Positions 20,916 through 52,460 of a DNA stretch of 64,000 nucleotides are shown here, piece by piece; the first letter of the stretch is position 1; every line of letters begins with the position of its first letter. Source of the DNA: Eledone cirrhosa (taxonomy: Eukaryota); the NCBI GenBank assembly GCA_964016885.1, contig OZ024746.1, forward strand, positions 45,074,001 to 45,138,000, in the 5' to 3' direction. The notes beneath the pieces were generated by a model, which searched no databases, was not told where the DNA came from, and was given only the letters and a program-made list of their open reading frames with translations. The position numbers and the translations under genes are program-made.

Positions 20916-20935
20916 TTATTATTATTATTATTATT
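20916..20935. repeat. (TTA)n tract, left edge of the retrotransposon array
   Basis: Similar tracts separate all elements: ~21884-21925, 28004-28042, 34018-34053, 36625-36653, 42519-42554, 47065-47130, 50271-50302, 51559-51600. Confidence 0.95.
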
Positions 20936-21882
20936 GGAAACTGGAATGTCTTCAGGCGCGCACAGCCCTCGGCCAATCGGGCAATGTGATCGGTGGAAAC
21001 TCCACCTTGGCGTTCTATAGGGGATTAGTTGAGGGAAAGAGCGACGACGTACTTGGAGAAACTCTAGGCGTCGACGAAAATCAACTAGCCAATCTCTTCG
21101 GAAGGACTTTCGGGCCGGGGCCTATGGTCAACTTCCAGAAATCCCTGGCCTGGCAGTGCTACCGAGGAGCTTTGCCAGTTCGGGATAAACTCTACAGGCA
21201 TGGAGGTGCCGTCAGCCGGGCATGTCCGAGATGCGCGCAGGGCGACGAAACCGTCCTGCACGCACTCGTCCAGTGTCCGAGCATTGCTGACTTATGGGTT
21301 TATGTCGAACACCTGCTGTCACGTGTAGGACGGATCCAGCTATCAGCTGAGTCCATCGTGAGGATTGCCCCGCCCCCTTCCTTTAGCCGGGAAGGGCAGG
21401 CAGTTTTTATCTGTCTGGTGGCCATGGCGAAAGAGATAGTATGGTGGACACGTTTGAAAGGGCTGAAGACGAGCACTTACCTCTTCGGTGATGCCCTGAT
21501 TAGCTTTTTCAAATTTCATTTGAAAAGGAAAGTCAGGGTAGAGAGGGAAGTGCTCTCTTCCCAGCATTTTGTTGAAAGATGGGTGAGAGAAGCAAGTATG
21601 GCCCGAATGAATGGGCCTTCTCTGAGTATGTGTCTGTAAATTAAAGGTGGAAAACTGGGAGAGGGCACTTGCCCTTGTGGTCAGGGCCACTGTGGTCTTT
21701 TAATGGGCTTTCTCCACAAATGTCCCTCGGAAGTCTCCCCCCTATTGGGGAATTTTTCTTTGTTATTTTATTTCATCCGCTGTGTTTTTTACACGCAGAA
21801 ATGCCCATTTGTACCGTCCTGTATTGTCCTGTACTGTCCTTAATGTCTACTTTATGTAAACCCTTGTGGTTAATAAAGAAAA

Positions 21883-21883
<1 letters not shown>
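20936..21883 (+). mobile_element. 5'-truncated L1/Tx1-like LINE (ORF2 C-terminus and 3'UTR)
   Basis: ORF 20986-21639 with CPRCAQGDETVLHALVQC zinc finger; AATAAA then (TTA)n. Confidence 0.9.
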
Positions 21884-21925
<42 letters not shown>

Positions 21926-22142
21926 GTTGAATGCTATGGTTGACGGAGGCTCGGCTCTGTAAGGTACAGTAATTTTTAACCGCTATAACAATTGTAAATT
22001 GTTTAAAACTTTAACCAAGTTGTAGATAAAAACACCCTCCTCCTCGTGAGATGGGTCTTTCTGCCCGTTATTTGGCCCTTCGGGGTTAAATAACCGCTTA
22101 TTCGGGTTTTGTGCCCAATATTCATTTTAAACCAAAAAAAAC

Positions 22143-24294
22143 ATGGCTACAAAAAAGAATTTTCACAAGTCACTCCCACTCATTCCGTCTTCTTCTTCCT
22201 CAATCGTCACTACATCAGAGAGAAGATTGTCTCTCTCCCTCCCTTCTCTAAATGTGTCTCTCTCCCTCGCGTCTCTTTCGCAAGCGACGCCAGTAAAGAA
22301 AAAGAAAAATATAGTTTCTGATAGTTTCCTCGCGCACGTGCAAACCGAGGAACATTTCTCCACGACGACGACAACGACGAATAATGTGTGCGGTAAATAC
22401 GGAAACCCATTTCATTCGTCTGACGTCATGAATAATAGCAGTAGCTGCCGTAATAACAGCAGCAGCAGCAACAGTGACAAGGAAAACAATAGTAGCAGCC
22501 GCAACAGCAGCAGCAGCAGCATAAACAACAACAGCATTAGCAGCAACAACAACAGCAGCAGCAGCAACAACAACAACCACAGCAACAGCGGTAGCGGCAG
22601 TGGTAGTACCAGTAGCAACAACAAAAGTAACAGCAGCTCTGACGACAACAATAACGACAAGAAAGAAAAACCAATCTCGTTTGCAGGTATCGCAAAGAAC
22701 CTGGAAACCATCCTTATAACAAATGAGGAATTACAGGAAGCAAAGAAGATGGTGACGAAAACCGGACACCGAGCAAACGCAAGGCAGCCGAAAAACTTTT
22801 CGAACCCAACAGCACTGTACGGTCACGTACCGTACAGTAAGCACAAAATCCCGTAGTGTTGAAAGAGCCAAAGAGGCTCAAATACAAAAAGCCTTAGGGT
22901 CTGTGTGGCAGCGGAAAACGCATATCACCCGAGGCAAGAAATATGCCACCGTAGACGTGCTTTTTGCCACACCCCAGGAGGCAAAGGCTCAATCCTTAGT
23001 GACCCTAAGGAGCGAGGAAATGGTGTTGGTGCCCTCCTACTGCGGGAAAAAACTTGTAAGGGTCATACTGACTCCCCGGGTGGGCCCTTTCTTGTCTGGG
23101 CGCGTCTGTCCTCGTCGGAATAGAGGACAAAACAACTGTACTGCAAGTACAGAAAAAGTGAGAGAAGATTGGGTCGGCACCTCCATTGAGATGTTAATCT
23201 AAACCAACCAGGAGTGCTTCGAAGCTATCACGGATGTGATAGACTTCGATAACGGCACTCAACTGCCCATAAGTGTTGAGGGCAAACGCCCGAAATGCTT
23301 TCACTGTGGATCGAAGACTCACCTCAGGGCCCTTTGCAATGAGAAGACCCTGAGAAAGGAGAAAACCCCCCTCCTTCCGAAGCCGGCTCCACTGCTACCA
23401 GCAACAGGACAAGCGGCAATCAGGAACGATAGGTCCGTGGCACCCATACCCACGCCACGGAAATCAAGAACAGCAGCAGCAGTGGAAGTATTAACAACAA
23501 CAACAGTAATACCAAATGCAGCTGCAACAGAGACTCCACTGCAAACATCACCAACAACAACAAGTGAAAGAGTGGAGCTGGTACCCCTCCCCGACCTCAC
23601 AGAACCAGACATTGGGTGTGAGGTGGGAGAGGGATGGCAAAAGGTCGCAAGAAGGCACAAACGCAGAAGCAGCACATCGTCGCCTTCGAAAAGGGAGGAA
23701 AGAAAGGAAAAAAGGTTAAAGGTTACTGCAAAGAGACTAAAAGCAGCAACACCACCAACACCATCACCACCATCGCCACCATCACTAGCACCACCATCAC
23801 CACCGGCAACAACCCCACCGCCAACAACAACAACACCGTCAACACCACCACTACAAGCACCAACATCGCAAACACAAAAAAACACACACACCCAGCAACA
23901 ACGACAAGAAAATAGCAGAACCACACCCCACTCCCAGAAAAACAAATGCACAGCAATAAATATACACAAGAAATTAATGACTTACATAATTGAACACACA
24001 GATATTTCACAGCACGACTACATAATACCAGCACCAATCAAAACACCAACGAACATAAGACTGGTAAAAATAGCACAGAAACAATACACAAACATTAAAA
24101 CGAAATTCCCCAACGCTGTTGGTGATCTCAGAGACCTAGGAGGGACACTCAACCGGAGGGTATATTCGGATATACTTACAGAAGTGCCAACGACCAGCCG
24201 AAGGGGCGATTCAACAGTCCCTTCACCAGACGACCAGCCGAAGGGGCGATTCAACAGTCCCTTCACCAGACGATCAAGTGAAAAGGGATGGTGA
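22143..24294 (+). pseudogene. ORF1 (gag-like) of A1, frameshifted
   Basis: Fragments 22143-22856, 22903-23202 and 23236-24294; Ser/Asn-rich N-terminus, RRM-like RGKKYATVDVLF segment, CX2CX4HX4C, Pro/Thr-rich tail. Confidence 0.8.
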
Positions 24295-24362
24295 AACCAT
24301 CCTTCCTCTGCGAGAAGAAGTAAGGTAAGTGGTCTTCACCATCTTTTCCACTCTATTTCAAC

Positions 24363-27300
24363 ATGACCTCACTCAGAATAGGCAGCATAAATGCGCGTGG
24401 CATGGGGTCGTCATGGAAGCAGGGACCCCTGCTCAACGACCTCAGGTCACTAAACATAGATGTAGTGGCCATCAGCGAGACCAGAATCTTCGAAGCACGG
24501 GCCTTCGCACCGATCTTCAGCGGCTACGATGTGTAAGCATCTCCCAGCCGTCCTGGATCGGGGTGAAGGAGTTGCTGCGCTTTTTCGGAGAGGTTTGGAA
24601 CTCGCCATACGGGCCATCTTCCTGGACCCAGAAGGTAAGTTGGTGGTGCTGGACGTTACCAGCGGAAACGGGCAAGCTTTCAGGCTAGTGGCCGTCTATG
24701 TCCCGACAGGAGCAGGGCGGCCTGATTTCTTCCGGCGTCTGGAGAACTTTCTTGGAACGTCCCGCTCGTTAGTGTTAGTGGGCGACTGGAACGGGATCTT
24801 AGATGCAAGCTGGGACTGTGTGGGATCAGCGGATAGGGGAGAAGGGTGCAATAGCCTCACCAACCTGCTCAGGCGTTTTGAACTGTCTGACAGGTACCGA
24901 TTGGATTTCCCGGATTTGCCAATGTGGACTTGGACAAATCGCATTGGGTCATCCAGATCATATCTAGATAGAGTATTTTGTAGGGAAATAGATAGGTCTT
25001 GCATAGGCTGTCCACAATTCAAGATAGTCAGCTACACGGACCACAAATTCGTGATCTGTGTGCTTGACTGCTTGACTTAGATAGGCCTCATAGAGGAGGA
25101 CCCGGATACTGGAAGCTAAACGGGACCTTACCAGCGCGCAAGGCCTACAAAGAACGGATTAGCGAACTAGTTAAGCGGACGTTGACGGGGGCCATCGTCA
25201 ACAAGTGGTGGTTTGCTCTGAAAAGAGCGATTAGAATATAGTCAATTAGGTTTAGTAAGGCTTTAGCAATAGAGAAAAATAGAGCAGAGGGAGAATTAGT
25301 TAGAAAACTAGCCGAGGTGCTTAGCAAAGGCATCGCGACCGACGTACTTGCGGCGAAATTGGCCCTTGACCAATTCTTCAATGCAAAGCACGAAGGCTGC
25401 GTTGTCAAAGCTAGGGTGCGTACTCTCAGACACGAGGGGACGAAAGCCGTTCAATGGGCCACGATCCGGTCTTTGGTGAACCACGCCGGGCGCATGCTAC
25501 TCGATCCCGGGCAAATGTGTGAAGCTTTTTAGCGACATTTCGCACAGCTGTTCGGGGGCAGCGGCGGGCCGGATCGAGGGTTGGACGTTAGTGTTTACCT
25601 AGACGGACTGCCGCGGCTCGGCCACTGAGGCGGAGTGTTGCGAAAGCCGATAACAGCCGCTGAAGTACGGGAGGCAATGACTGGCTGCACAACGGGTAAA
25701 TCGCCTGGTTTGGATGGTCTTCCCTATTAACTTTACGTACAGATGCCAGACCTGTTCGGAGGCCTCTTGGCGGACGTCTACTGCAACTGGCAACAGAACG
25801 GGAGAATTCCCAGCTCTGTGAGCCGAGGAGCGGTGGCGCTGCTAAGAAAGGATCCGAACAAGGGGGATAACATAGATAATTTCAGGCCCATAACTCTGCT
25901 AAACACGGCGTTCAAGATTTTGGCCAAGAGGTTGGCGCTTGTCGTTGGTGGTCTGGTGGGAGAGGCGCAGACATGCGCAATTCCCGACAGATCCATCCAC
26001 GACAACCTCCACCTCATGCGATACATCGTAGAGAGGGTAGCTAGGGAACCTGGCACGGGTGGGTCCTTGATCAATTTAGATCAGTCGAAAGCTTTCGATA
26101 GGGTCGACCATCGTTACCTAGCGGCAGTCCTGAGGGCGGCTGGCTTTGGGCCCGTCTTCAGAGGCTGGATCGCTGCCATGCACAGCGACATCTGCTCTGT
26201 GGTGAGAGTGAACGGTCACCTGTCGGAACCGTTCAACATCATGCGCTCGGTCCGCCAAGGATGTCCCCTCTCGTCCCTCTTGTACGTATTGACTCTCGAG
26301 CCATTACTGCACAAACTGGAGACGTTGAGGGGAGTCCCGCGCGAACTAGGATGCGGAAGATCCGTGTCAGCATATGCGGACGATGTCACCGTAGTGGTGT
26401 CGAACGCCAAACACATCGAGGCGATCGGCACTACACTAAGAGAATACGAAGCGGTGACAGGAGCAATGATCAACCAGGAAAAGTCAGTGGGCCTGCAGCT
26501 CGGCACCTGGAGAGGCAGGTCCATGCCGTCCAACAGCGTCGTCGGGCGCTGGACGGACGGACCGGTTAAATTGCTAGGGGTCTGGTTCGGTCCGGACCTC
26601 CAGACGGACAAAAACTGGGACGAGGTGACGAGCAGGGTGGCTTCTCTCACCCAGAAATGGGCGGAGAGGAAGCTATCCCTGAAAGGTCGAGCGGAGGTGG
26701 CTAACGCGTACATCGCGTCTGTCATCTGCTACCGCCTAACCGTCGTACCTTGTCCTAAGCCTCGCCTGACTGCGCTGGAGCGTTTGCTCTTTCGCTTTTT
26801 GTGGATGGGACGTGCTCCGATGGTCAGGCGGTCCATCTGTTGTCAACACCCGCTACGTGGAGGGCTGGGCATGCCGTGGCTGATGATGCGCAGGCACGCG
26901 CTCAGGCTACGACATCTCCACCTCTTCCTCGACGGTGATCAGGTGTGGTCGCCGTTTGCTAGACGCGTTTTTCCCCAGCTCGTTTCCTTGACGGAGCTGC
27001 AGTCCTGGGTCAAGCGAAGACCGAGAGGGAGCGCCTGGAGACTGGAATGTCTTCAGGCGCTCACAGCCCTCGACCAATCGGGCAATGTGATCGGTGGAAA
27101 CTCCACCTCGGCGTTCTATAGAGGATTAGTGGAGGGGAAGAGCGACGACGTACTTGGGGAAACTCTAGGCGTCGACGAAAATCAACTAGCCAATCTCTTC
27201 GGAAGAACTTTCGGGCCAGGGCCTATGGACAACTTCCAGAAATCTCTGGCCTGGCAGTGCTACCGAGGAGCCTTGCCAGTTCGGGATAAACTCTACAGGC

Positions 27301-27740
27301 ATGGAGGTGCCGTCAGCCGGGCATGTCCGAGATGCGCGCAGGGCGACGAAACCGTCCTGCACGCACTCGTCCAGTGTCCGAAAATTGCTGACTTGTGGGT
27401 TTATGTCGAACACCTGCTGTCGCGTTTAGGACGGATCCAGCTATCATCTGAGTCTATCGTGAGGATTGCCCCGCCCTCCTCCTTTAGCCGGGAAGGGCAG
27501 GCAGTTTTTATCTGTCTGGTGGCCATGGCGAAAGAGATAGTATGGTGGACACGTTTGAAAGGGCTGAAGACGAGCACTTACCTCTTCGGTGATGCTCTGA
27601 TTGACTTTTTCAAATTTCATTTGAAAAGGAAAATCAGAGTAGAGAAGGAAGTGCTCTCTTCCCAGCATTTTGTTGAAAGATGGGTGAGAGAAGCAAGAAT
27701 GGCCCGAGTGAATGGGCCGACTCTGAGTATATATCTGTAA
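24363..27740 (+). pseudogene. ORF2 of A1: APE endonuclease + reverse transcriptase + C-terminal zinc finger; 5' half broken, 25743-27740 open
   Basis: MTSLRIGSINARG, GDWN, YLDR, TDH (APE); FRPITLLN, DQSKAFDRVDH, QGCPLS, YADD (RT). Confidence 0.92.
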
Positions 27741-28001
27741 ACTAAAGGTGGAAAACTGGGAGAGGGCACTTGCCTTGGTGGTCAGGGTCATTGTGGCTTT
27801 TTACTGGGCTTTCTCCACAAATGTCCCTCCGAAGTCTCCCCCCTATTGGGGAATTTTTCATTGTTATTTTCATTGTTATTTTTGTTACATCCTCTATTTT
27901 TGTTTTTTTTACACGCAGAAATGCCCATTTGTACCGTCCTGCATTGTCCTGCACTGTCCTTAATGTCTACTTTATGTAAACCCTTGTGGTTAATAAAGAA
28001 A

Positions 28002-28042
<41 letters not shown>

Positions 28043-28259
28043 GTTGAATGCTATGGTTGACGGAGGCTCGGCTCTGTAAGGTACAGTAATTTTTAACCGC
28101 TATAACAATTGTAAATTGTTTAAAACTTTAACCAAGTTGTAGATAAAAACACCCTCCTCCTCGTGAGATGGGTCTTTCTGCCCGTTATTTGGCCCTTCGG
28201 GGTTAAATAACCGCTTATTCGGGTTTTGTGCCCAATATTCATTTTAAACCAAAAAAAAC

Positions 28260-30411
28260 ATGGCTACAAAAAAGAATTTTCACAAGTCACTCCCACTCAT
28301 TCCGTCTTCTTCTTCCTCAATCGTCACTACATCAGAGAGAAGATTGTCTCTCTCCCTCCCTTCTCTAAATGTGTCTCTCTCCCTCGCGTCTCTTTCGCAA
28401 GCGACGCCAGTAAAGAAAAAGAAAAATATAGTTTCTGATAGTTTCCTCGCGCACGTGCAAACCGAGGAACATTTCTCCACGACGACGACAACGACGAATA
28501 ATGTGTGCGGTAAATACGGAAACCCATTTCATTCGTCTGACGTCATGAATAATAGCAGTAGCTGCCGTAATAACAGCAGCAGCAGCAACAGTGACAAGGA
28601 AAACAATAGTAGCAGCCGCAACAGCAGCAGCAGCAGCATAAACAACAACAGCATTAGCAGCAACAACAACAGCAGCAGCAGCAACAACAACAACCACAGC
28701 AACAGCGGTAGCGGCAGTGGTAGTACCAGTAGCAACAACAAAAGTAACAGCAGCTCTGACGACAACAATAACGACAAGAAAGAAAAACCAATCTCGTTTG
28801 CAGGTATCGCAAAGAACCTGGAAACCATCCTTATAACAAATGAGGAATTACAGGAAGCAAAGAAGATGGTGACGAAAACCGGACACCGAGCAAACGCAAG
28901 GCAGCCGAAAAACTTTTCGAACCCAACAGCACTGTACGGTCACGTACCGTACAGTAAGCACAAAATCCCGTAGTGTTGAAAGAGCCAAAGAGGCTCAAAT
29001 ACAAAAAGCCTTAGGGTCTGTGTGGCAGCGGAAAACGCATATCACCCGAGGCAAGAAATATGCCACCGTAGACGTGCTTTTTGCCACACCCCAGGAGGCA
29101 AAGGCTCAATCCTTAGTGACCCTAAGGAGCGAGGAAATGGTGTTGGTGCCCTCCTACTGCGGGAAAAAACTTGTAAGGGTCATACTGACTCCCCGGGTGG
29201 GCCCTTTCTTGTCTGGGCGCGTCTGTCCTCGTCGGAATAGAGGACAAAACAACTGTACTGCAAGTACAGAAAAAGTGAGAGAAGATTGGGTCGGCACCTC
29301 CATTGAGATGTTAATCTAAACCAACCAGGAGTGCTTCGAAGCTATCACGGATGTGATAGACTTCGATAACGGCACTCAACTGCCCATAAGTGTTGAGGGC
29401 AAACGCCCGAAATGCTTTCACTGTGGATCGAAGACTCACCTCAGGGCCCTTTGCAATGAGAAGACCCTGAGAAAGGAGAAAACCCCCCTCCTTCCGAAGC
29501 CGGCTCCACTGCTACCAGCAACAGGACAAGCGGCAATCAGGAACGATAGGTCCGTGGCACCCATACCCACGCCACGGAAATCAAGAACAGCAGCAGCAGT
29601 GGAAGTATTAACAACAACAACAGTAATACCAAATGCAGCTGCAACAGAGACTCCACTGCAAACATCACCAACAACAACAAGTGAAAGAGTGGAGCTGGTA
29701 CCCCTCCCCGACCTCACAGAACCAGACATTGGGTGTGAGGTGGGAGAGGGATGGCAAAAGGTCGCAAGAAGGCACAAACGCAGAAGCAGCACATCGTCGC
29801 CTTCGAAAAGGGAGGAAAGAAAGGAAAAAAGGTTAAAGGTTACTGCAAAGAGACTAAAAGCAGCAACACCACCAACACCATCACCACCATCGCCACCATC
29901 ACTAGCACCACCATCACCACCGGCAACAACCCCACCGCCAACAACAACAACACCGTCAACACCACCACTACAAGCACCAACATCGCAAACACAAAAAAAC
30001 ACACACACCCAGCAACAACGACAAGAAAATAGCAGAACCACACCCCACTCCCAGAAAAACAAATGCACAGCAATAAATATACACAAGAAATTAATGACTT
30101 ACATAATTGAACACACAGATATTTCACAGCACGACTACATAATACCAGCACCAATCAAAACACCAACGAACATAAGACTGGTAAAAATAGCACAGAAACA
30201 ATACACAAACATTAAAACGAAATTCCCCAACGCTGTTGGTGATCTCAGAGACCTAGGAGGGACACTCAACCGGAGGGTATATTCGGATATACTTACAGAA
30301 GTGCCAACGACCAGCCGAAGGGGCGATTCAACAGTCCCTTCACCAGACGACCAGCCGAAGGGGCGATTCAACAGTCCCTTCACCAGACGATCAAGTGAAA
30401 AGGGATGGTGA
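28260..30411 (+). pseudogene. ORF1 of A2
   Basis: Translations identical to A1 ORF1 fragments. Confidence 0.8.
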
Positions 30412-30479
30412 AACCATCCTTCCTCTGCGAGAAGAAGTAAGGTAAGTGGTCTTCACCATCTTTTCCACTCTATTTCAAC

Positions 30480-33400
30480 ATGACCTCACTCAGAATAGGC
30501 AGCATAAATGCGCGTGGCATGGGGTCGTCATGGAAGCAGGGACCCCTGCTCAACGACCTCAGGTCACTAAACATAGATGTAGTGGCCATCAGCGAGACCA
30601 GAATCTTCGAAGCACGGGCCTTCGCACCGATCTTCAGCGGCTACGATGTGTAAGCATCTCCCAGCCGTCCTGGATCGGGGTGAAGGAGTTGCTGCGCTTT
30701 TTCGGAGAGGTTTGGAACTCGCCATACGGGCCATCTTCCTGGACCCAGAAGGTAAGTTGGTGGTGCTGGACGTTACCAGCGGAAACGGGCAAGCTTTCAG
30801 GCTAGTGGCCGTCTATGTCCCGACAGGAGCAGGGCGGCCTGATTTCTTCCGGCGTCTGGAGAACTTTCTTGGAACGTCCCGCTCGTTAGTGTTAGTGGGC
30901 GACTGGAACGGGATCTTAGATGCAAGCTGGGACTGTGTGGGATCAGCGGATAGGGGAGAAGGGTGCAATAGCCTCACCAACCTGCTCAGGCGTTTTGAAC
31001 TGTCTGACAGGTACCGATTGGATTTCCCGGATTTGCCAATGTGGACTTGGACAAATCGCATTGGGTCATCCAGATCATATCTAGATAGAGTATTTTGTAG
31101 GGAAATAGATAGGTCTTGCATAGGCTGTCCACAATTCAAGATAGTCAGCTACACGGACCACAAATTCGTGATCTGTGTGCTTGACTGCTTGACTTAGATA
31201 GGCCTCATAGAGGAGGACCCGGATACTGGAAGCTAAACGGGACCTTACCAGCGCGCAAGGCCTACAAAGAACGGATTAGCGAACTAGTTAAGCGGACGTT
31301 GACGGGGGCCATCGTCAACAAGTGGTGGTTTGCTCTGAAAAGAGCGATTAGAATATAGTCAATTAGGTTTAGTAAGGCTTTAGCAATAGAGAAAAATAGA
31401 GCAGAGGGAGAATTAGTTAGAAAACTAGCCGAGGTGCTTAGCAAAGGCATCGCGACCGACGTACTTGCGGCGAAATTGGCCCTTGACCAATTCTTCAATG
31501 CAAAGCACGAAGGCTGCGTTGTCAAAGCTAGGGTGCGTACTCTCAGACACGAGGGGACGAAAGCCGTTCAATGGGCCACGATCCGGTCTTTGGTGAACCA
31601 CGCCGGGCGCATGCTACTCGATCCCGGGCAAATGTGTGAAGCTTTTTAGCGACATTTCGCACAGCTGTTCGGGGGCAGCGGCGGGCCGGATCGAGGGTTG
31701 GACGTTAGTGTTTACCTAGACGGACTGCCGCGGCTCGGCCACTGAGGCGGAGTGTTGCGAAAGCCGATAACAGCCGCTGAAGTACGGGAGGCAATGACTG
31801 GCTGCACAACGGGTAAATCGCCTGGTTTGGATGGTCTTCCCTATTAACTTTACGTACAGATGCCAGACCTGTTCGGAGGCCTCTTGGCGGACGTCTACTG
31901 CAACTGGCAACAGAACGGGAGAATTCCCAGCTCTGTGAGCCGAGGAGCGGTGGCGCTGCTAAGAAAGGATCCGAACAAGGGGGATAACATAGATAATTTC
32001 AGGCCCATAACTCTGCTAAACACGGCGTTCAAGATTTTGGCCAAGAGGTTGGCGCTTGTCGTTGGTGGTCTGGTGGGAGAGGCGCAGACATGCGCAATTC
32101 CCGACAGATCCATCCACCACAACCTCCACCTCATGCGATACATCGTAGAGAGGATAGCTAGGGAACCTGGCACGGGAGGGTCCTTGATCAATTTAGATCA
32201 GTCGAAAGCTTTCGATAGGGTCGACATCTGCTCTGTGGTGAGAGTGAACGGTCACCTTTCGGAACCGTTCAACATCATGCGCTCGGTCCGCCAAGGATGT
32301 CTCCTCTCGTCCCTCTTGTACGTATTGACTCTCGAGTCATTACTGCACAAACTGGAGTCGGTGAGGGGCGTCCCGCGCGAACTAGGATGTGGAAGATACG
32401 TGTCAGCATATGCGGACGATGTCACCGTAGTGGTGTCGAACGCCAAACACATCGAGGCGATCGGCACTACACTAAGAGAATACGAAGTGGTGACAGAAGC
32501 AATGATCAACCAGGAAAAGTCAGTGGGCCTGCAGCTCGCCCCTGGAGACGCAGGTCCATGCTGTCCAACAGCGTCGTCGGGCGCTGGACGGACGGACCGG
32601 TTAAATTGCTAGGGGTCTGGTTCGGTCCGGACCTCCAGACGGACAAAAACTGGGACGAGGTGACGAGTAGGGTGGCTTCTCTCACCCAGAAATGGGCGGA
32701 GAGGAAGCTATCCCTGAAAGGTCGAGCGGAGGTGGCTAACGCGTACATCGCATCCGTCATCTACTACCGCCTGACCGTCGTACCTTGTCCTAAGCCCGCC
32801 TGACTGCGCTGGAGCGTTTGCTCTTTCGCTTCTTGTGGAAGGGACGCGCTCCGATTGTCAGGCGGTCCATCTGCTGTCAACACCAGCTACGTGGAGGGCT
32901 GGGCATGCCGTGGCTGATGATGCGCAGACACGCGCTCAGGCTACGACATCTCCACCTCTTCCTCGACGGTGATCAGGTGTGGTCGCCGTTTGCTAGACGC
33001 GTTTTTCCCCAGCTCGTCTCCTTGACGGAGCTGCAGTCCTGGGTCAAGCGAAGACCGAGAGGGTGCGCTTGGAGACTGGAATGTCTTCTGGCGCTCACAG
33101 CCCTCGACCAATCGGGCAATGTGATCGGTGGAAACTCCACCTTGGTTTTCTATAGGGGATTAGTGGAGGGGAAGAGCGACGACGTACTTGGAGAAACTCT
33201 AGGCGTCGACGAAAATCAATTAGCCAATCTCTTCGGAAGGACTTTCGGGCCGGGGCCTATGGACAACTTCCAGAAATCCCTGGCCTGGCAGTGCTACCGG
33301 GGAGCTTTGCCAGTTCGGGATAAACTCTACCGGGATAGAGGTGCTGTCAGCCGGGCATGTTCGAGATGCGCACAGGGCGACGAAACCGTCCTGCACGCAC

Positions 33401-33774
33401 TCGTCCAGTGTCCGAGCATTGCTGACTTGTGGGTTTATGTCGAACACCTGCTGTCACGTGTAGGACGGATCCAGCTATCATCTGAGTCCATCGTGAGGAT
33501 TGCCCCGCCCTCTTCCTTTAGCCGGGAAGGGCAGGCAATTTTTATCTGTCTGGTGGCCATGGCGAAAGAGATAGTATAGTGCACACGTTTGAAAGGGCTG
33601 AAGACGAGCACTTACCTCTTCGGTGATGCCCTGATTAACTTTTTCAAATTTCATTTGAAAAGGAAAATCAGGGTAGAGAGGGAAGTGCTCTCTTCCCAGC
33701 ATTTTGTTGAAAGATGGGTGAGAGAAGCAAGTATGGCCCGAATGAATGGGCCTTCTCTGAGTATGTGTCTGTAA
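30480..33774 (+). pseudogene. ORF2 of A2 (APE-RT), multiply disrupted
   Basis: Fragments 30646-31197, 31860-32612, 32818-33579 and 33589-33774; YADD retained. Confidence 0.9.
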
Positions 33775-38820: not shown

Positions 38821-38857
38821 CAAGTGGTCTTTCCCATCTTTTCCACTCCTTTTCAAC

Positions 38858-41800: not shown

Positions 41801-42274
41801 GGTGCTTTGCCAGTTCGGGATAATCTTTACAGGCATGGAGGTGCCGTCAGCCGGGCATGTCCGAGATGCGCACAGGGCAACGAAACCGTCCTGCACGCAC
41901 TCGTCCAGTGTCCGAGCATTGCTGACTTGTGGGTTTATGTCGAACACCTGCTGTCACGTGTAGGACGGATCCGGCTATCAGCTGAGTCCATCGTGCGTAT
42001 TGCCCCGCCCCCTTCCTTTAGCCGGGAAGGGCAGGCAGTTTTTATCTGTCTGGAGGCCATGGCGAAAGAGATAGTATGGTGGACACGTTTGAAAGGGCTG
42101 AAGACGAGCACATACCTCTTCGGTGATGCCCTGATTAACTTTTTCAAATTTCATTTGAAAAGGAAAATCAGGGTAGAGAGGGAAGTGCTCTCTTCCCAGC
42201 ATTTTGTTGAAAGATGGGTGAGAGAAGCAAGTATGGCCCGAATGAATGGGCCTTCTCTGAGTATGTGTCTGTAA
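38858..42274 (+). pseudogene. ORF2 of B (APE-RT) with frameshifts near 39255 and 41035
   Basis: ORFs 38858-39328, 39192-41033 and 40796-42274 together give a complete APE-RT-ZnF protein. Confidence 0.92.
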
Positions 42275-42554
42275 ATTAAAGGTGGAAAACTGGGAGAGGG
42301 CACTTGCCCTTGTGGTCAGGGCCACTGTGGTCTTTTAATGGGCTTTCTCCACAAATGTCCCTCGGAAGTCTCCCCACTATTGGGGAATTTTTCTTTGTTA
42401 TTTTATTACATCCTCTGTTTTTTTTACACGCAGAAATGCCCATTTGTACCATCCTGTATTGTCCTGTACTCTCCTTAATGTCTACTTTATGTAAACCCTT
42501 GTGGTTAATAAAGAAAACATTATTATTATTATTATTATTATTATTGTTGTTATT

Positions 42555-45500
42555 CCTTGAATCTCAGTCATTGATGTTGGTTAACTGGAAAGTCCGTTGG
42601 ATTGAATATCAAGCCACTACCTGCAGCCTCAGATAATCAGGACGTATCGGAGGGTTCTTGCTGTTCCAAGCAAGCATGCCTTTTGAAGCGTTCAAAAAAG
42701 CGTGAAGGGGCCGATTTTCTTTAACCATCCCTGGAAACTTTTGGAGATAGTCCCCAGTGCGCCTATGACAATCGGGATCACTTTGACTTCATGGCAGTTC
42801 CAAATCCTTTTCACCTCTCACTTTAGGTCCTGGTATCGGTTAATGTTCTCCCTCTCCTTCTCTTGCACTCTCGTGTCGAACGGGCAGGCCACATCCACAA
42901 TCAGACACGATCTTTTTTCTTTGTCCACAACCATCAGGTCAGGTCTATTGTGTTCCAGTTTTTTGTCCGTCTGTATCCTAAAATCCCACAGCACCTTCAC
43001 CTGATTGTTCTCCATCACCGCCTCTGGCCTATGCTCATACCATTACTCAGAATGTGGTAAATTGTTTACTTTGCACAGGTGCCAGTGGATCACCCTGCCT
43101 ATCACATCGTGTCTCCAGCCCTTATAGTGGGTCTGGGCTAGGTGTTTACACTCGGACACAATGTGAGCCACAGTCTCCTCTCTCTCTCCACAGATCCTGC
43201 ACAGTGGGCTAGCCTCCTCCTTGTAGATATGGTGCTTCAACCACTTCGTTTTGAGGGCCTGCTCCTGCGCAGCCATTAGCATACCTTCTGTAGCCTTTTT
43301 GAGGTCTCCTCTTCTCAACCAGTTCCATGTCTGTGGATCTCTAAATTCAGTTTTCTCAAAGAAGGTACTATGAAGGGATTTTCCCTTAAGGCTGCTCTTC
43401 CTCCTTGATGTTATTTCCTCCTTGGACATCCCCTGGCCTACTGTCCCCTCCTTCAGTACAGTTCTGAGCATTGGCTCCTTACTGTAGGTCACGTATTTGT
43501 ATAGGCTGTTTTTCTCCATCTGAACACAGTCCTCTATGCTGATAAGACCTCTTCCACCCTCAGATCTCCTTAGGTAGAGTCTATCGACATCACTCCTCTT
43601 GTGGAACATGTTGTAGATAGTCAATAGCTTCCTAGTCTTCCTATCCATTTCTTTTTGTTCAGCAACATTCCATCTCAGAATTCCCGCACTGTACCTAATA
43701 ATAGACACGGCTCGGGAATTTACTGCGCTTATGGCATTTCTGCTGTTCAGATGTGACTTCAATACGCTCCTTACTCTCCGAATGTATTCAGTTCTTAACA
43801 ATTCCTTCATTTTTTTGTTCTTTATGCCATCAGCCTCCAGAACGCCCAAATACTTGTATCCTTCCTCAGAGTAAATTTCCTTTATCATCTCACCTGTTGG
43901 TATCTGGATCCCGTTACTTCTGCTCAACCTACCCCTCTTCATCACAATGACTCCACATTTACCAATACCAAACTGCATACATATATCACTGCTGAAAATA
44001 CGGACAGTGTCAACAAGCACATCCAACTCCTTCTCACTTTTCCCGAAGAGCTTAAGATCGTCCATGAAGAGGAGGTGATTGATGGTAAGCTCTCCCCTTC
44101 CCAACTTGTATGCTGCTCTCACTTTTCGCAGCATAATGGTCAAGGGCATCAGGGCAAGGACAAACAACAGAGGCGACAGGCTATCTCCCTGGAAGATACC
44201 TCTCTTGATCTTCACGCTTCCCAAGGATACTCCAGTTGATGTCAACTCTGTCTCCCAGGACCCCATACTCCTGCCTAGCAACTGTCTGATGTTATCTGCC
44301 ACCCTGAAGATCTCCAGGCTTTTGGTGATCCAGGAATGAGGCACCATGTCAAATGCCTTTCTGTAGTCTATCCATCCCATGGCAAGATCAGTGTGTCTCC
44401 TCCTGCAATTCCCCATTACCATCTTATCAATAAGTAACTGGTCCTTTGTATCACGTGACTTCTTTCGGCATCCTTTCTGTTCGTCCGGTAACAAGTTGTT
44501 TGTGTGGAGGTGATGGTAGATTTCCTCAGACACAATGCTCGTCAACAGTTTCCACATTACGGACAGACATGTGATAGGTCTATAGTTGGTAACATCATTA
44601 CCCTTGATTCGGTCTTTCATTATCAGAACTGTGGTACCTTTTGTCAACCACTCTGGCACCTCACCCGACACCAAGCAGTCATTGAACATGGCCGTCAACT
44701 TCGGGTGGAGGGATGTTAAATGTTTAATCCAATACCCCTACACACCATCTGGGCCTGGTGATTTCCAGTTGGTTAGTTTTTTGGCCTGCCCCTTAATAGT
44801 TTCAACTGTGATACTCAAATCAGTTTGTTGCTGTGCCTGCTCACCGATCTCCCTCTGTACTGTCTCAATCCACCCTGCCTGGGCATTGTGTCTAACATCC
44901 TGCTCCCATATTCCTCTCCAGAATGTTTTAGTTTGCTCCGCCCCAGGGATCAAGTCGTTGCCTCTTTCTTTCCCCTCAAGCTGTCCAAACAGCATCTTCT
45001 GGTTGTTGTCGAACATGCGGTTCTGTTTATACTGACTGACTCTGTTCTCGTATCGCCTGATTTTTGCACTCTTTGCTACAATGCGTTGCTTCAGTTCCTC
45101 TATGATAATATTTAGCTTTTTCCTCCTAGTTTTGTATTTTATTTCCAGCCTATTTTTAGTGCCTATGTTTTTTAGTGTCCCATTCAGTAGTGACTCAAGC
45201 TTTCCTATGTCATTTCTCATTTCCCCGATTTGCCCACTCAGTCGCTTCTTCCACCACGGCTCTGCTCTTTCTTGTCTGTTGTTTCCTCTCGCTTTCATAC
45301 CAAGTAGTTTCCTCACCGTATTTGCTGTTGCTTTGAGGATATTGTTGCACTGGTGAAGGCTCCTCGCCTCAAGGTATGGGATGACTTTGTTTACTTTAGC
45401 TGTTGTTTCTTTTAACTTTTTCCTGTCTACAAATCTTAGGTTCATAGGTCTCCCACTATCATTGTTCAATTCATCTACCACTAAATTTAGGATGTCAACC

Positions 45501-47060
45501 GAATCTTGTCCTAGCCCGTCAGCATTCATCTCCTCAGTGGCCGTATCTCTGTTCCAGGTATTATTTATCTCAGTATTCAGATCATTGTCTGCTTCGGGTG
45601 GTTCCTCCGTTCTCAGGACCTCTTCACCTTCATTTCCCACTGGCTCGCTTGTCTGGCATTCTACACCCGCCATCTCCAAGCCATTCTCTCTGCTCAGTTC
45701 CTCCAGTTCCAGCTCGCTTATCCATCCATTAGTTCTTATTACCCGAGCCTGCCCGGCCAATTTTTGTTCATCTAATTTAAATAAACCAATCTCGTTCCAG
45801 ATGTTATGCATCCGTCTCCTGTAGCCCCTCTCCTTGGGGTTACTTTTCAGGTAACATTGCATAACAGTTCTATTCAATTCTTTCGTCCAGTTGGTTCTGG
45901 CCCCTTTCCTTCTTCTCCTTCCTCCAACATCAGCAGTATTTGGTTGACAGTCAGGTTCCTGCTGCTGAGCCAGGGGGTACCTGTTGGGTGAGAGTCTGTC
46001 ACATGACGTTCTAGTCTCCATTTCATCGTTATTCGAACTGTTTATGTTCGATATTTAAACACTCTTATCGAGGATTGGCGAATGTATGGTTACATATCCA
46101 TCTGTGGATCCGCCAGTCCACTTGGCCCTTGTGTGGCATTATCACCACGCTGTATACGAACACACAGGCAGAAAGGGCCCCAAAGATGAATAAGCATAAG
46201 TTTCATTGTAATGTAGTGTTCGAATGTCTGACTTAGTTTTTGTTTTTTAAGTTTTAGTTTTTCCCCCCTCTTCTCTGTCCGTCCGCCTGCTTCTCTCTTC
46301 ATTCTTATTTTCTTTACGTTTTTGGGTTTTTTTTTTTTTTTTTGTTTTTGTTTTTCTCTGTTTGTTTTTCTCGTTTTTTGCTGTTGTTGCTGTGCTGCTT
46401 TAGTTTTGTTGTTTGTTTTTTCTTTTTTCTTTTGAGTCTATCTATATATTTTGATGCCTTCCTCTTTTTTAGCAGTAGGGATTCTATAATGTGGTGGCAG
46501 CAGCCAGCTAGAGGAAATGGGAGACTGGCGGCGGTAGCGATACTGAGACAGTGGTGGTGGTGATGTCGATACCGAGGCAGTGGTGGCGGTGATGTGACCG
46601 TATTACTGTAGTGATGGTGCTGTAGCGGTGGTAGCAGTGAAGGAGTGAAGGAGTGGTGGCGGCAGTGATGGGATAATGGTTGTAATGATGGCCGTAGTGA
46701 GCGGTGGTGGTTTAGTGTACACAGGTGATGGGGTGGGTGGTGTATCTAGTTTCTGGTGTTGGTGAGTTTGGCTGTTCTATATAGTGTAGACAGAGGAGGA
46801 GGGGGGGGGGGGGTTCTTCTTCCATTTATAGCCATTTTCTTTTTTGGATATACAGTGTACAATACAAAGTTGAATATTTGAATATTTGAGCCTTATAACA
46901 ATATATTTTGGGTCCGAATTTTTTGGGGCTCAAGCCGGGTGCTTTACGTAGCATTTGTACTAAGAGTTGTTATTTCACAAATGATTTAAATATGTTAAAA
47001 ATTCAAAACTTACGGGAGCGATTTCATGACCTCCGTCACCTCGTGCGTCTTCTTCCCTAT
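42555..47060 (-). mobile_element. Full-length R4/Dong-like RLE element D2
   Basis: Single reading frame 46021-42629, ~1 kb 5' region, short 3'UTR, (TAA)n on both sides. Confidence 0.9.
42629..46021 (-). pseudogene. D2 ORF (~1130 codons): Myb-like N-terminus, RT, CCHC and RLE; three in-frame stops
   Basis: ORFs 44738-46021, 43043-44698 and 42818-43018 share one frame; the stops match CAG, AAA and TGG codons in D1. Confidence 0.9.
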
Positions 47061-47064
47061 ATAA

Positions 47065-47130
<66 letters not shown>

Positions 47131-47131
<1 letters not shown>

Positions 47132-50100
47132 GTTGCATTTATCTTGCTTTATGTTCATACAAGTTATCACCAAGTCACAACCAGTGACCTCAAGAGACAA
47201 CAAGGTCCGCCATGTTCAAGAAAGAACACACATACACACACATGCATCTTTAGGTGTTTAGACTTGTGATGTACTTATATTGACAGAATCTTCCTTAGTA
47301 TATGGGCAGTTCCCATTAGTACTATCTTTTGTATTTCTCATATAGCTGGGTTTCCTGTGATTTGCGATAAGTAATCATTAGACCCCTTAGGTATCATTCC
47401 TAGAGCGCTTACAACCACTGGTATTGTTTTAGTTCTCAATTTCCACATTTTTCCAATTTCTATCTCCAGGTGTTTTATAGATACATTCTTGTCTATTGGA
47501 ACGGATATATCAATTAGCAGGCGTACTCTCTTTTTAAAGTCCTTCAGTATTATATCAGGTCCATTTGCATCTATTTTTCGGACTGTTTGGATGCTAAAGT
47601 TCCACAAGATTTAAATGTGATCTTTTTCAAGACTGGGGTCCAAAAATCAGCTAATGTTTCAAATCTTCCCATTACTTCGGGGCTGGAGACCTCCCATAAC
47701 CGGAATACTCCTACTGTTGGCCCTCCATGCTCACCACCAACAAATCAAAAGAAAAAGAGAGAAAAATGGTCAAGGGAAGACAATAAAGAAGTTATTGAGG
47801 CTTTCTACACTGCCATGTACTACCCATCAAATAGATCGAATACGGAACAGACATATATCAACTAGAAAAAGAAACATCCCGAAAACAGAGGCTATATTGA
47901 CAGTAACAAATTAGCCAATATGCGAAGAAATATTGTTATAAAAAAGTTACTAACTGATATAGAAAATGATCAGATCAAGCTATTAGCACAAAGTCAGCGA
48001 AGGGAAAATGAAACATGTGTCAGTGAAAACGAGGTAAATTGTAACACTTCGAATCCCAGGGTTGGGGCGGAATCACTGACAACAGAACAAATTTAAGAAA
48101 GGATCGAAAAAGTGGAGGGAGTGCATACTAAAGATGAAACTCAAAATGAAAACAATGAGATCGCAAATGATAAAGAAATGAATGAGAATGAACTTGCCAA
48201 CTTGAAGGATGCTTGAAGGATGAAATTATGATCGAATGGATGAAAATGAAAGAATCTGACATGGGAGAACGAGACACTGTCCCTAAGATCCAGAACTCCA
48301 AACAGAACTAAAAGATAATACACAAGAATCACATTATTCTCAAAAACATTATCATCACAAACAAACTAAACATTACTGATTTAAATCATCTCTATTATGC
48401 ATCGGCTAAAGTTGCCACTCACTTATGTGGAGGGAAAATGAAAAACAAAGGAATCCCCACAAGAAATCTACTTGGCAAGAGAACATCAATCGCCAAATAA
48501 ACCTTCTCCGGTCTGACATAGAAATTTTAACAAACTACAAAGTAGGAGAACATGTTAAACAAACTAAATTTAGAAAATTGAAAAGAAAATACAGTATAAA
48601 ATCAACAAGTGACATAGACATGCTGATAGAAATAATCAGGCAAAAATTTTCGGCCAAAGCTGCTCGTATAAGGCGCTTTGAAAAACGATCTAGATTCTAT
48701 AAGGACAATAATTGTTTCTATTTTAGGCACAAGGCCAGCAATTACCCATTACATTACTGGTACTTTATTTTATCGACCCTGTAAGGATGAAAGGCAAAGT
48801 TAACCTCGGCGGGATTTGAACTCAGTTCATAAAGGGGCGTAACTCTATGCTTCAAAGCATGGTGTCCGACTCTCTACCGATACTGTCAATCAAGAAACTT
48901 CTACAGAAAAATTGGCAAGTCATCAATAACTGCTAAATCAATACCACCCAAGGAGGAAGTGCAAGAATTCTGGGAAAAGATCTGGACCGAAGAAAATGTT
49001 CATAATATACATGCCCCATGGATAGACAGACAAATGAAAGATACGGCTCACCTTGAGGAACAAATATGGTAAAATATAACAGTTGAACAGTGGCGTTTGG
49101 CTCTTAGAAAAACCAGCAAATGGAAATCCCCAGGAAAAGACAAAATACAAAGTTTTTGGATAAATGCTTTCACAGAGTCTCATGAGCTGTTAGCCCAACT
49201 TTACAATGAAATAGTTAAGGAGCCAGAAAAGATACCATCATGGCGAGTTAACGGCATTACATTCCCGCTTCCGGAGAATGATGAAACAAACAATCCCAAA
49301 AATTACAAACCGATAACTTGCTTGACCACAATGTATAAAATTTTAATATCAGTCCTAACTGAATATACATATGACCACCTGATAACAAATGATCTATTTC
49401 CCAATGAGCAGAAAGGGTGTAAACGAGGCTCATATGGCTGTAAGGATCTGCTTTTGGTTAACAAAATGATACTGTTGTTGGTGAAGGGGGGAGCCAGCAG
49501 TGCCATAGTCGTCTATTTATATCTTTTGCTAGCCTCTCCCTTGTCTAGTGATACAGCCACCTTGCCCTTTCTTAAGTTACCAGAAGGTAGTGTGGGAATA
49601 GCGGTGGTAGCAATGAAGAAGTGGTGGCGGCGGTGATGGGATAGTGGTAGCAATGATGGAGTGGTGGCGGCAGTGACTATAGCGATAGCGTTGTCGTTAC
49701 TGAGTTTTGTTGAATAGACTGTAGTAGTATGCGTTTGTTTGATCTGTGTATCTATGTGGTTTGTCGCGTATGTTTAATAAATGTGTTGACATATTTCCTT
49801 AATATTTGAATTAAATATTTTGAGAAAACTTGAGATACAATAATAGTAATTATTATTATTATGCTGGGATTGGTGGTGGTGGTGGTGAAATTGCCGTTAT
49901 CTGGCTGTTGATTTAGTGTACACTGAGGGGTGATGTGATAGGTGGTGTATCTAGTTTGTGGTGTTGGTAAAATTGCTGTTATTTTGCTGTTCTATATAGT
50001 GTAGACAGAGAGGGTTTTCTTCCATTTATAACCATTTTCTTTTTTGAATATGAAATTTATAATACAAAATTGAATATTTGAGCGATATAACAGGATATTG

Positions 50101-50250
50101 TGGATCCGAATTTCCTGAGAGCTAAGCCTGGCGCTTTATGCCCCATTTGTACTACGAATTGTTATATCACAATTGTGTTAAATATGTTAAAAATCAAAAA
50201 CTTACACGAGCGATGCCATAACACTCTATCCACCGCGTGCGTCTACTTCA
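47131..50250 (-). mobile_element. Divergent R4/Dong-like element D3 with an inverted, partly deleted interior
   Basis: 3' end 47131-47611 on - (WNFSIQT..GPDII..DISVP..ALG); N-terminus to RT start on + 47612-49474 (KWSRED, KSPGKD, YKPITCL, EQKGC); 5' region 49475-50250 on -, similar to D2 46600-47060. Confidence 0.75.
48717..48891 (-). mobile_element. tRNA-derived SINE nested in D3
   Basis: Same family as 14461-14682, with A and B boxes; interrupts the D3 frame. Confidence 0.85.
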
Positions 50251-50302
50251 TCTTCTTCTTCTTCTTGTCATTATTATTATAATTGTTATTATTATTATTG
50301 TT

Positions 50303-51561
50303 CTTTGAGTCTCAGTCATTGATGTTAGTTAACTGGAAAGTTTGTTGAAATGAATATCAAGCCACTACCTGCAGCCTCAGATATTCAGGACGTATCGGAG
50401 GGTTCTTGCTGTTCCTAGCAAGCATGCCTTTTGAAGTGTTCCAAAAAGCGGGTCGGGGTCAATTTTCTTTAACCATCCCTGGAAACCTTTTGAGATAGTA
50501 CCTAGTGCGCCTATGACAATCGAGACCACTTTGACTTCATGGCAGTTCCAATTCCTTTTTACCTCCCACTTTAAGTCCTGGTATCGGTTAATTTTCTCCC
50601 TCTCCTTCTCTTGCACTCTCGTGTCGAATGGGCAGGGCATATCCACAATCGGGCACGATCTTTTTTCCTTGTCCAAAACCACCAGGTCAGGTCTATTGTG
50701 TTCCAGTTTCTTGTCCGTCTGTATCCTAAAATGCCATAGCACCTTCACCTGATCGTTTTCTATCAACGCCTCTGGCTCATGCTCATACCACTTCTCAGAA
50801 TGTGGTAAATTGTTTACTTTGCATAGGTGCCAGTGGATCACCCTGCCCATCACATCATGTCTCCAGCCCTATAGTGAGTCTGGGCTAGGTGTTTACACTC
50901 GGATACAATGTGAGCCACAGTCTCCTCTCTCTCTCTCCACAGATCCTGCACAGTGGGCTAGCCTCCTCCTTGTAAATGTGGTGTTTCAACCACTTCGTTT
51001 TGAGGACCTGCTCCTGCGCAGCCATTAACATTCCTTCTGTAGCCTTTTTAAGGTCTCCTCTTTTCAACCAGTTCCATGTCTGTGGATCTCTAAATTCAGT
51101 TTTCTTAAAGAAGGTACTATGAAGGGATTTTTCCTGAAGGCTGCTCTTTCTCCTTGATGTTATTTCCTCCTTGGACATCCCCTGGCCTATTGTCCCCTCC
51201 TTCAGTACAGTTCTGAGCATTGGCTCCTTACTGTAGGTCACGTATTTGTGTAGGTTGTTTTTTTCCATCTGAACACAGTCCTCTATGCTGATAAGACCTC
51301 TTCCACCCTCAGATCTCCTTAAGTAGAGTCTATCGACACCACTCCTCTTGTGGAACCTATTGTAGATAGTCAATAGCTTCCTAGTCTTCCTATCCATTTC
51401 TTTTTGTTCAGCAACATTCCATCTCAGAATTCCCGCACTGTACCTAATAATAGATACAGCTCGGGAATTTACTGCACTTATGGCATTCCTACGGTTCAGA
51501 TGTGACTTTAATACGCTCCTTACTCTCCAAAGGTATTCAGTTCTTATCAATTCCTTCATTT
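50303..51561 (-). mobile_element. R4/Dong-like element D4, 5'-truncated (same family as D1/D2)
   Basis: ORFs 50885-51559 and 50377-50853 are near-identical to the D2 C-terminus; TTA on both sides. Confidence 0.9.
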
Positions 51562-51600
51562 ATTATTATTATTATTATTATTGTTATTATTATTATTACT

Positions 51601-52460
51601 ATTTATCATCGGACTGGGAAGGTGTGTTCTTGTGAGCTCCGTCAGTTAAATTTCAAGTTTTTAAATTAAATTAATTGTTGTACTTTTTGTGTGGCAATGG
51701 GTCATAAGACATCCGTCTTTGCCTGGTATAAAGAACACCCCGTAATATTTGGTCCTTGAGCCCTGATATTCAAACTTTGCTTTAAAATATCTTTTTCGAA
51801 AACGAAAAACATGGTGGAGCCACCCCGCCACCAAACTTTGAGTCTGCTGTCGTGAGACAGTAGTGCAGGTGGAGGCATTGGGATAAGTAACACCGTCCCC
51901 AACAAAATGTTAGGCAATATTGTCAACAACAAAAACAACAGCATCAAAACCAACAAACAAATGACAGACGAAAAAAAACAATGGTAACAAAAACAACAAC
52001 GAAATTAGCAACACCATCAACAGCATGACTAACGGCAGCAGCAACAACAAGATAGAAACAACTCAAGTAAACAATGACAACAACAACATCACTAACAACA
52101 TTGTGACCAGCAACACGGACAATAACAAGAAATCTTTGCTGCTGCAGCAGCCAAAAAGAGGTCATGCTTTAGCATGGACCTTACCTAAAAAGAGAAAACT
52201 TTGGCACAGGCATGGAAACGCATTAAACAATAGCAAATCTGGACCAACTTAACCGTCCCTGCAGATGCCATAGAAGTGATGGAGAGAAGAATAGTGTTCT
52301 TTAGATGTATTTCAGTGGAGGCTGAAGCTGCGGCCATCACTCTCCAGGCAGAAATCGAAGCTGCGCTGAGGTGCATCAGAGCTGACACCTAATACAGAGC
52401 CAGGGGCAGATAATACGACACCATCTCGTTACTGTTTGAGAAACCCTCGCTGTGAAACAT
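51601..52460 (+). mobile_element. 5' fragment of a third Tx1-like family (C): leader and decayed ORF1
   Basis: Leader motifs shared with B (ttgtgagctccg, acaccc, ccttg-gccc); 52253-52455 translates ..ERRIVFFRCISV..EIEAALR..ARGR*YDTISLLFEKP, aligning with B ..QIQKALG..RGQKYGTVDVFFETP. Confidence 0.7.

Follow-up and report, generated by a model that had tools for sequence, protein, structure and literature searches.

Array content

The window analyzed here is a stretch of 64,000 nucleotides from Eledone cirrhosa (GCA_964016885.1, contig OZ024746.1, positions 45,074,001 to 45,138,000), and all positions below refer to it unless stated otherwise. At 20916-52460 it holds an array of nine copies or fragments of long interspersed nuclear elements (LINEs) with TTA tracts between them, at the very coordinates first proposed. 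Five of these are Tx1-like elements with an apurinic/apyrimidinic-type endonuclease (APE), identified by the domains Exo_endo_phos, RVT_1 and zf-RVT. All five are on the plus strand, and the four with a 3' end run into TTA. The other four are Dong-like elements with a restriction-like endonuclease (RLE), recognized by CCHC and PD..D motifs and the absence of an APE, and they have their termini on the minus strand. The TTA tracts between neighboring LINEs are 8-21 units long, and two of them (50271-50297 and 51560-51598) are imperfect. Within the window, TTA tracts of at least four units are confined to 20916-51598, with the exception of one (TAA)4 at position 560.

The left edge of the array is a (TTA)6 (20916-20933), followed by a 5'-truncated Tx1-like copy (20934-21884, plus strand) with the C-terminus of open reading frame (ORF) 2 and a 3' untranslated region (UTR) carrying a terminal CTTGT stem-loop and AATAAA. 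Then come two full-length copies of the family TxA on the plus strand: a chimera (21924-28004), in which the 5' part is that of the next copy and the 3' 1.9 kb is like young TxA, and an older copy with broken frames (28041-34018). Further to the right are a 5'-truncated Dong1 with reverse transcriptase (RT), CCHC motif, RLE and TAA tail (34043-36624, minus strand), a full-length TxB with leader, a zinc knuckle in ORF1 and APE, RT and zinc finger in ORF2 (36652-42519, plus strand), and a full-length Dong1 consisting of a 1-kb leader and a single RT-RLE ORF, with stops in this copy (42544-47060, minus strand). The longest spacer, (TTA)21 (47067-47129), leads to a Dong2 copy that ends on the minus strand but is rearranged inside (47130-50262). 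The ORF of this copy contains a short interspersed nuclear element (SINE; 48700-48891, minus strand), which is tRNA-like and has a Tx1-type 3' stem-loop and an ATTAT tail. Last are a 3' fragment of Dong1, about 93% identical to the full copy (50298-51559, minus strand), and TxC (51599-52460, plus strand), an old Tx1-like 5' fragment with leader and decayed ORF1 start that ends in CAG/TAG repeats and whose best other copy is 80% identical. This fifth Tx1-like copy was classed by means of its family relatives, which continue into Tx1 ORF1/ORF2. The other TTA spacers are located at 21885, 28005, 34019, 36625, 42520, 50271-50297 and 51560-51598.

Polarity of termini in the genome

By using the element ends without their repeats as queries over the 3.0-Gb genome, with the best 30 of 40 loci listed per query, we obtained 351 loci outside the window (1.63 Mb), deduplicated by junction sequence and including 74 longer stretches. 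Another 25 junctions, attributed to internal deletions or to interruption by a SINE, were excluded from the counts; one low-complexity match among them read TAA. Out of 226 Tx1 termini, 212 were at TTA and none at TAA, divided into 3' ends (87/93), 5' ends (112/112) and truncated 5' ends (13/21). The Dong termini were at TAA in 249 of 276 cases and at TTA in none (3' ends 132/139, 5' ends 70/79, truncated 5' ends 47/58). The polarity rule of the array is solid. The original prediction had named two findings that would speak against it, namely copies elsewhere that mostly lie outside TTA or in random orientation, and TTA at 3' ends only. Neither was encountered, as not one of the 226 and 276 termini had the wrong polarity, and the repeat also precedes 5'-truncated copies of both kinds. 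Its presence at these truncated junctions argues that the repeat is the target and not merely a templated tail. Furthermore, a family member was found within 330 bp across the tract for 110 of the 143 query termini, in the expected orientation in all 110, and the 40 neighbor pairs made up of a Tx1 and a Dong were all opposed (these locus sets were not deduplicated).

A second mixed array of Tx1, Dong and SINE copies, more than 20 kb long, is situated at 45148001-45173199 of the contig, with its start about 11 kb to the right of the window (L408, L191, L218). It has the opposite absolute orientation but keeps the polarity rule. At one junction in L191 (position 3637), a 5'-truncated Tx1 meets a 5'-truncated Dong head to head, without a tract in between. 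A deletion between neighbors could account for this, or two elements that primed from the two strands of a single target. A tail-to-tail fusion at another locus (L405) shows that deletions do occur.

Identity of the Tx1-like and Dong-like elements

An intact ORF2 of the Tx1-like elements (L396) contains the Pfam domains PF03372, PF00078 and PF13966, i.e. APE, RT and a C-terminal zinc finger, and ORF1 bears a CCHC knuckle. This two-ORF plan without RNase H is the one by which the Tx1 clade is recognized. ORF2 scored 216 bits (E 2e-58) against Xenopus Tx1L ORF2 and about 105 bits against human L1 ORF2p, and the RT is 37% identical to that of Tx1L, as compared to 31-32% for plant L1. An RT tree left the placement of the elements unsettled, while a quick tree of APE and RT, which did not include Kibi, Koshi and Keno, grouped them with Tx1L (SH-like approximate likelihood ratio test 92) and apart from the plant-L1 branch. 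Judging from these comparisons, the families likely belong to the Tx1 clade. Of the proposal that they are TTA-specific Tx1 families, the targeting is thus borne out by the terminus counts, while clade membership is likely but not strongly supported by trees. For the APE domain, AlphaFold run on the single sequence gave a model (predicted local distance difference test 37) that was set aside.

TxA and TxB, set side by side at 21924-24280 and 36652-38780, have the same ORF2 family, with 93-96% nucleotide identity, while their leaders differ and their ORF1 products share only about 45-50% of the amino acids. Going by this pattern, the difference is a 5' swap within Tx1. Elsewhere in the genome, TxB has many copies with an intact ORF2 of 1152 amino acids.

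Dong1 has an open frame of 1140 amino acids in one copy (L403), and this single ORF encodes RT, then CCHC and a PD..D(E/K) RLE, but no APE. The motifs CRICG..H..SEC and PDL..D can be read directly from the sequence, and we take them to be the CCHC and RLE signatures, respectively. The best PDB matches of the Dong proteins were R2 proteins; no named Dong or R4 protein was among the 120 matches listed. Dong2 is a distant second Dong family, whose RT is 44-46% identical to that of Dong1. Both fell among TAA-flanked relatives in a quick tree, and a single clade of Dong1 and Dong2 was rejected (approximately unbiased test, p-AU 1.9e-108) in an analysis of 26 rows that was run after the quick tree had been seen and with the group defined by the shared leader.

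The 67 outside Dong relatives that were included in the tree comprise 23 with a TAA tail, four with a TTA tail, all in one clade, and 40 with neither. Since some of them use TTA, polarity is a trait of the lineage and is not set by endonuclease class. Five Dong-type RLE elements on metagenome contigs (L237, L239, L240, L243, L286) have TTA in place of TAA on the sense side, in L239 at both ends. Four of the five make up one clade, which amounts to a strand switch inside the RLE lineage.

The 5' ends of the outside relatives vary. Six (L223, L226, L229, L230, L233, L234) have a conserved GC-rich element directly after the TAA run, without an Rfam match, which is possibly a structured RNA or ribozyme. 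Three others (L244:1-320, L245:1-320, L268:90-507) begin with what we take to be tRNA-like heads with A and B boxes, suggesting that Dong 5' ends have been exchanged often. No Rfam ribozyme was detected in 20500-53000, nor in 16 outside relatives, so the scan is an insensitive one.

SINE insertions, target duplications and putative nick site

Target duplications of the LINEs themselves are masked by the pure repeat, and only one (L396) out of 63 Dong and 62 Tx1 copies inspected was suggestive. In the SINE, the 3' end continues into ATTAT in 112 of 135 copies. Anchored direct repeats of at least 9 nt were found in 69 of the 135, and in 45 of those the repeat is not pure ATT. These 45 duplications are 9-21 nt long, mostly 14-19, and begin at ATTAT or ATTAA; the preceding base is C or T in 34 out of 42. 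On the opposite strand, they likely place the first nick of the Tx1 APE at 5'-ATAAT^R. This site is a pyrimidine-purine step that recurs every three bases in (TAA)n. The L1 target site is likewise a pyrimidine-purine step. A duplication of 14-19 bp corresponds to five or six repeat units for each insertion and lends support to the predicted regeneration of target on both sides and, with it, a self-extending landing pad.

The link between SINE and Tx1 is indicated by several shared features, namely a stem-loop (AACC-CTTGT-GGTT, GCC-CTTGT-GGC or GGC-CTTGT-GCC) whose stems differ yet pair, the end GAAA(A/T)CA, and a polarity that was the same in 21 out of 21 adjacent cases. From these we infer that the SINE is mobilized by Tx1 proteins, with Tx1 as its likely LINE partner.

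Two more copies of the SINE occur in the window outside the array (14479-14690 and 16913-17020), at short ATTAT-like sites. At three other loci (L185, L192, L424), SINEs are found at the same ATTAA site in TxB ORF1 (TxB position ~1890, corresponding to ~38540 in the window). They differ in length, and two of the three have duplications, of 18 and 14 bp.

Rearrangements within the array

The nine pieces are all present, but they are not nine separate insertions. The segments 21887-26000 and 28004-32117, both on the plus strand, are 100% identical over 4,114 bp, shared frame breaks included, so the two TxA copies cannot be counted as independent. The 3' 1.9 kb of the first copy has 2-4 mismatches per ~1.8 kb to four young TxA copies elsewhere, while its 5' part is about 5% divergent from them. 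The simplest account would be a young TxA insertion whose cDNA joined the homologous neighbor, thereby duplicating the interval, although gene conversion or an assembly fault may also have produced the identity. Templated chimeric L1 insertions have been described, in the accessible text mostly shorter than 250 bp (10.1101/2024.08.27.596794).

The Dong2 copy consists of a 3' end on the minus strand (47125-47637), an inverted middle on the plus strand (47630-49474) and a 5' end on the minus strand (49470-50270). It also carries two deletions, of 0.4 and 1.5 kb, and the inserted SINE, which is the tenth element of the array. The RT piece on the plus strand (47630-49474) was considered as a Dong of the wrong polarity, but rejected in favor of this internal inversion.

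The notion of a single (TTA)n filled by the array applies to its left side. On the right, the array ends with an old Tx1 fragment that lacks its 3' part and passes into CAG/TAG repeats and not into TTA, so that a single ancestral tract is presumed for the array as a whole and demonstrated on its left side only.

A 5' leader common to Tx1 and Dong

At one point, the sequence upstream of the Dong ORF was considered as a Tx1 5' fragment in its own right, located on the minus strand and hence in violation of the polarity rule. This was rejected, as 30 out of 30 such ends continue into the Dong ORF. The first ~190-200 nt of the Dong leader are nevertheless homologous to Tx1 leaders. In the array, the module is located at 46805-47019 in the full-length Dong1 (E 1.6e-5) and at 50032-50211 in Dong2 (E 3.3e-7), both on the minus strand. 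In pairwise comparisons, TxC and Dong2 gave a z of 10.2 and TxB and TxC one of 11.6, with controls at 2.7 or below. A profile of 31 Tx1 leaders matched Dong1 in 38 of 40 cases and Dong2 in three of six at E<1e-3 (best 5.3e-12), and a profile of 34 Dong leaders matched 15 of 25 TxC-type leaders at the same threshold (best 7.5e-8). Where an ORF could be detected behind a TxC-type leader, it was always Tx1 ORF1 or ORF2. A leader motif had 21 matches in the genome and none in the control, distributed over 16 Dong-type and five Tx1-type leaders, two of the latter without an ORF in view and placed there because of their profile score and TTA flank. In 80 outside Dong loci, at least ten of which have an entire 5' end following a TAA run, the module was not detected (best E 0.41).

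Dong leaders are 68-93% identical among themselves and 57-66% identical to one group of Tx1 leaders, and the Tx1 leaders are the more diverse. Most of 12 Tx1 leaders contain a palindromic hairpin (-4 to -18 kcal/mol), of which seven Dong leaders retain only the 3' arm (0 to -4 kcal/mol), as expected of a derived copy. The greater diversity and the one-armed hairpin make it likelier that the leader went first from Tx1 to Dong and was later handed on among Dong lineages. From its position, the shared leader would be an internal promoter.

These data also suggest a wider scenario, which we put forward tentatively and as slightly less than an even bet. TTA tracts may have been a ground for the exchange of parts between APE and RLE elements, on which Dong took over the Tx1 promoter module, perhaps through a co-oriented insertion of Dong into AAT-rich codons of Tx1 ORF1. 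The module would have replaced a ribozyme-type 5' end, reached a second, distant Dong lineage and aided the expansion of Dong.

Several results weigh against a common origin of the leaders or its direction. The TxA and TxB leaders gave z values of only 1.1-2.6 against Dong, and the TxB leader was not recovered by the Dong-only profile. Dong is not nested inside Tx1 in the leader tree, which makes the evidence for the direction of transfer indirect, and RNAalifold gave no common fold for the joint alignment of these AT-rich leaders. It could thus be argued that targeting and polarity are real, but that the 5' likeness stems from convergence on a host promoter grammar or from donation by a third element. 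The cross-group identity of only 47-66% in AT-rich sequence, the poor match of TxA and TxB, and the other heads on the three outside relatives described above (L244, L245, L268) fit this alternative. We nonetheless regard it as unlikely, because the similarity runs colinearly for ~190 nt as far as the ATG and keeps motifs that contain GC in register, is found in the sense direction only (reversed-sequence controls of the profiles gave no matches), involves a motif that is confined to these leaders in 21 out of 21 cases, and includes the 3' arm of the Tx1 hairpin.

Proposed explanation

By the geometry of target-primed reverse transcription, the priming strand is the TAA strand for an element whose sense side reads TTA, and the TTA strand for one whose sense side reads TAA. 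Together with the observed orientations, this implies priming of Tx1 and Dong from opposite strands. We consider it probable, on the grounds of sequence comparison, that the array arose from Tx1 and SINE inserting one way and Dong the other, that each family primes from its own strand and likely duplicates a few repeat units, and that the Dong leader was likely captured from Tx1. In this mechanism, the Tx1 APE would nick the (TAA)n strand at 5'-ATAAT^R, where the 3' end of the RNA, i.e. the CUUGU stem-loop followed by UUA, would prime, while the Dong RLE would nick the (TTA)n strand. Target would be left on both sides of each insertion, and the tracts would consequently fill up. The 4.1-kb duplication would have formed when the cDNA of a young TxA joined its homologous neighbor at insertion, or by later conversion, and Dong would have acquired the internal-promoter leader from Tx1 before it spread from one Dong lineage to another.

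Some observations sit less comfortably with this explanation. No tract was found at 14 Tx1 and 27 Dong termini, and the polarity sample consists of best-scoring, mostly young copies and is not a random draw. The putative nick site is derived from the SINE, whose mobilization by Tx1 is itself a deduction, and the SINE has a looser tie to long tracts, as 61 out of 98 3' ends were at TTA, 34 at neither repeat and three at TAA.

If unequal crossover, segmental duplication or assembly error were the main source of the array, this would account for the identical 4,114-bp duplicate and for the junction between a Tx1 3' end and a Dong1 3' end, which is present twice with ~97% identity. Such an origin is nevertheless improbable, since the remaining copies differ in family, truncation point and age, the 3' end of the duplicated copy comes from a separate young subfamily, and mixed arrays occur in different order at many loci. 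Lastly, that the TTA and TAA runs are templated tails that accumulated passively, with polarity as a by-product and no targeting, is largely refuted and very improbable: both families do end straight in the repeat without poly(A), full-length 5' repeats could derive from a transcript starting in the tract, and the SINE is often at a bare ATTAT, but the repeat precedes 5'-truncated copies in their own polarity (Tx1 13/21, Dong 47/58, none opposite), neighbors across the tract follow the rule in 110 out of 110 cases, and TAA targeting by Dong has been published (PMC3812793, as far as its accessible part goes).

The array provides a natural pair of young, partly intact elements, in which the opposite faces of a single 3-bp repeat would be read by unrelated nucleases. 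With Tx1 and Dong, direct tests become possible of how strands are chosen and microsatellites targeted, which the accessible part of a review describes as not well understood (PMC3812793). (TTA)n is added to the targets of Tx1, and an abundant SINE gains a likely LINE partner. The mechanism may also explain local pile-ups of retrotransposons in octopus-type genomes, where the accessible text of one study lists Dong-R4 and L1-Tx1 among the most active LINEs (PMC13282606). If the leader transfer is true, regulatory modules can cross the deepest split among LINEs.

Other features of the window

Broken RT-like ORFs on the minus strand at 5828-7748 end in a GIY-YIG-like motif; they have no Pfam match and presumably represent a Penelope element. 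A search of sequencing runs listed none with matching RNA. A degenerate 70-bp tandem repeat of about 6-8 copies is found at 62850-63440.

Comparison with known systems

TRAS and SART are LINEs of the R1 clade. In Bombyx they insert in opposed directions into one repeat, (TTAGG)n (PMC7265360), and resemble the present case in that two site-specific LINE families use one asymmetric repeat in opposite directions, a choice that in TRAS and SART is set by the endonuclease. Both of these are telomeric APE elements, whereas here an APE and an RLE family share interstitial (TTA)n on many chromosomes. Keno, a Tx1 element with APE, and Utopia, with RLE, converge on U2 small nuclear RNA genes (PMC4640811), a case of parallel evolution toward one target by a Tx1 family with APE and a family with RLE, as here. 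They differ in having identical 3' flanks at the same site and in the same orientation, in a low-copy gene, and the accessible part of PMC4640811 mentions neither mixed arrays nor a shared leader.

Microsatellite targets within the Tx1 clade are represented by Kibi with (TC)n, Koshi with (TTC)n and a crocodilian Tx1 with (TTCC/TTTC)n, and Tx1-Mar mobilizes SINEU, with which it shares its target preference (all in the accessible text of PMC4494074). Here, by comparison, it is (TTA)n that is targeted, the element forms a deep branch without a strongly supported link to Tx1L, and the SINE is tRNA-like and shares the 3' stem-loop.

Dong elements of Bombyx, Anopheles and Biomphalaria are described, in the accessible parts of PMC3812793 and PMC3774820, as having a single RT-RLE ORF and a sense-oriented TAA target at both ends, and the Dong elements here agree in both respects. 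The Bombyx Dong starts with a self-cleaving ribozyme like that of hepatitis delta virus (PMC3774820), unlike the 5' end here, a 1-kb leader that opens with the Tx1-like module and in which a ribozyme was neither found nor excluded. Dong-R4 and L1-Tx1 are abundant or active in cephalopods (PMC13282606, PMC8967140, PMC9115989), and the accessible text of these three papers contains no target data for them. In the literature, with Repbase and supplements outside that scope, we found no TTA-specific Tx1, no mixed Tx1/Dong array and no leader exchange between APE and RLE elements.

Opposed insertion and shared targets have precedents, while the putative leader exchange is the part that would surprise specialists. 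The recruitment of new 5' UTRs is known from L1 lineages, and the TxA and TxB pair, with near-identical ORF2 but different leader and ORF1, resembles it. Unlike in those lineages, however, the leader described here would also have crossed the divide between APE and RLE elements.

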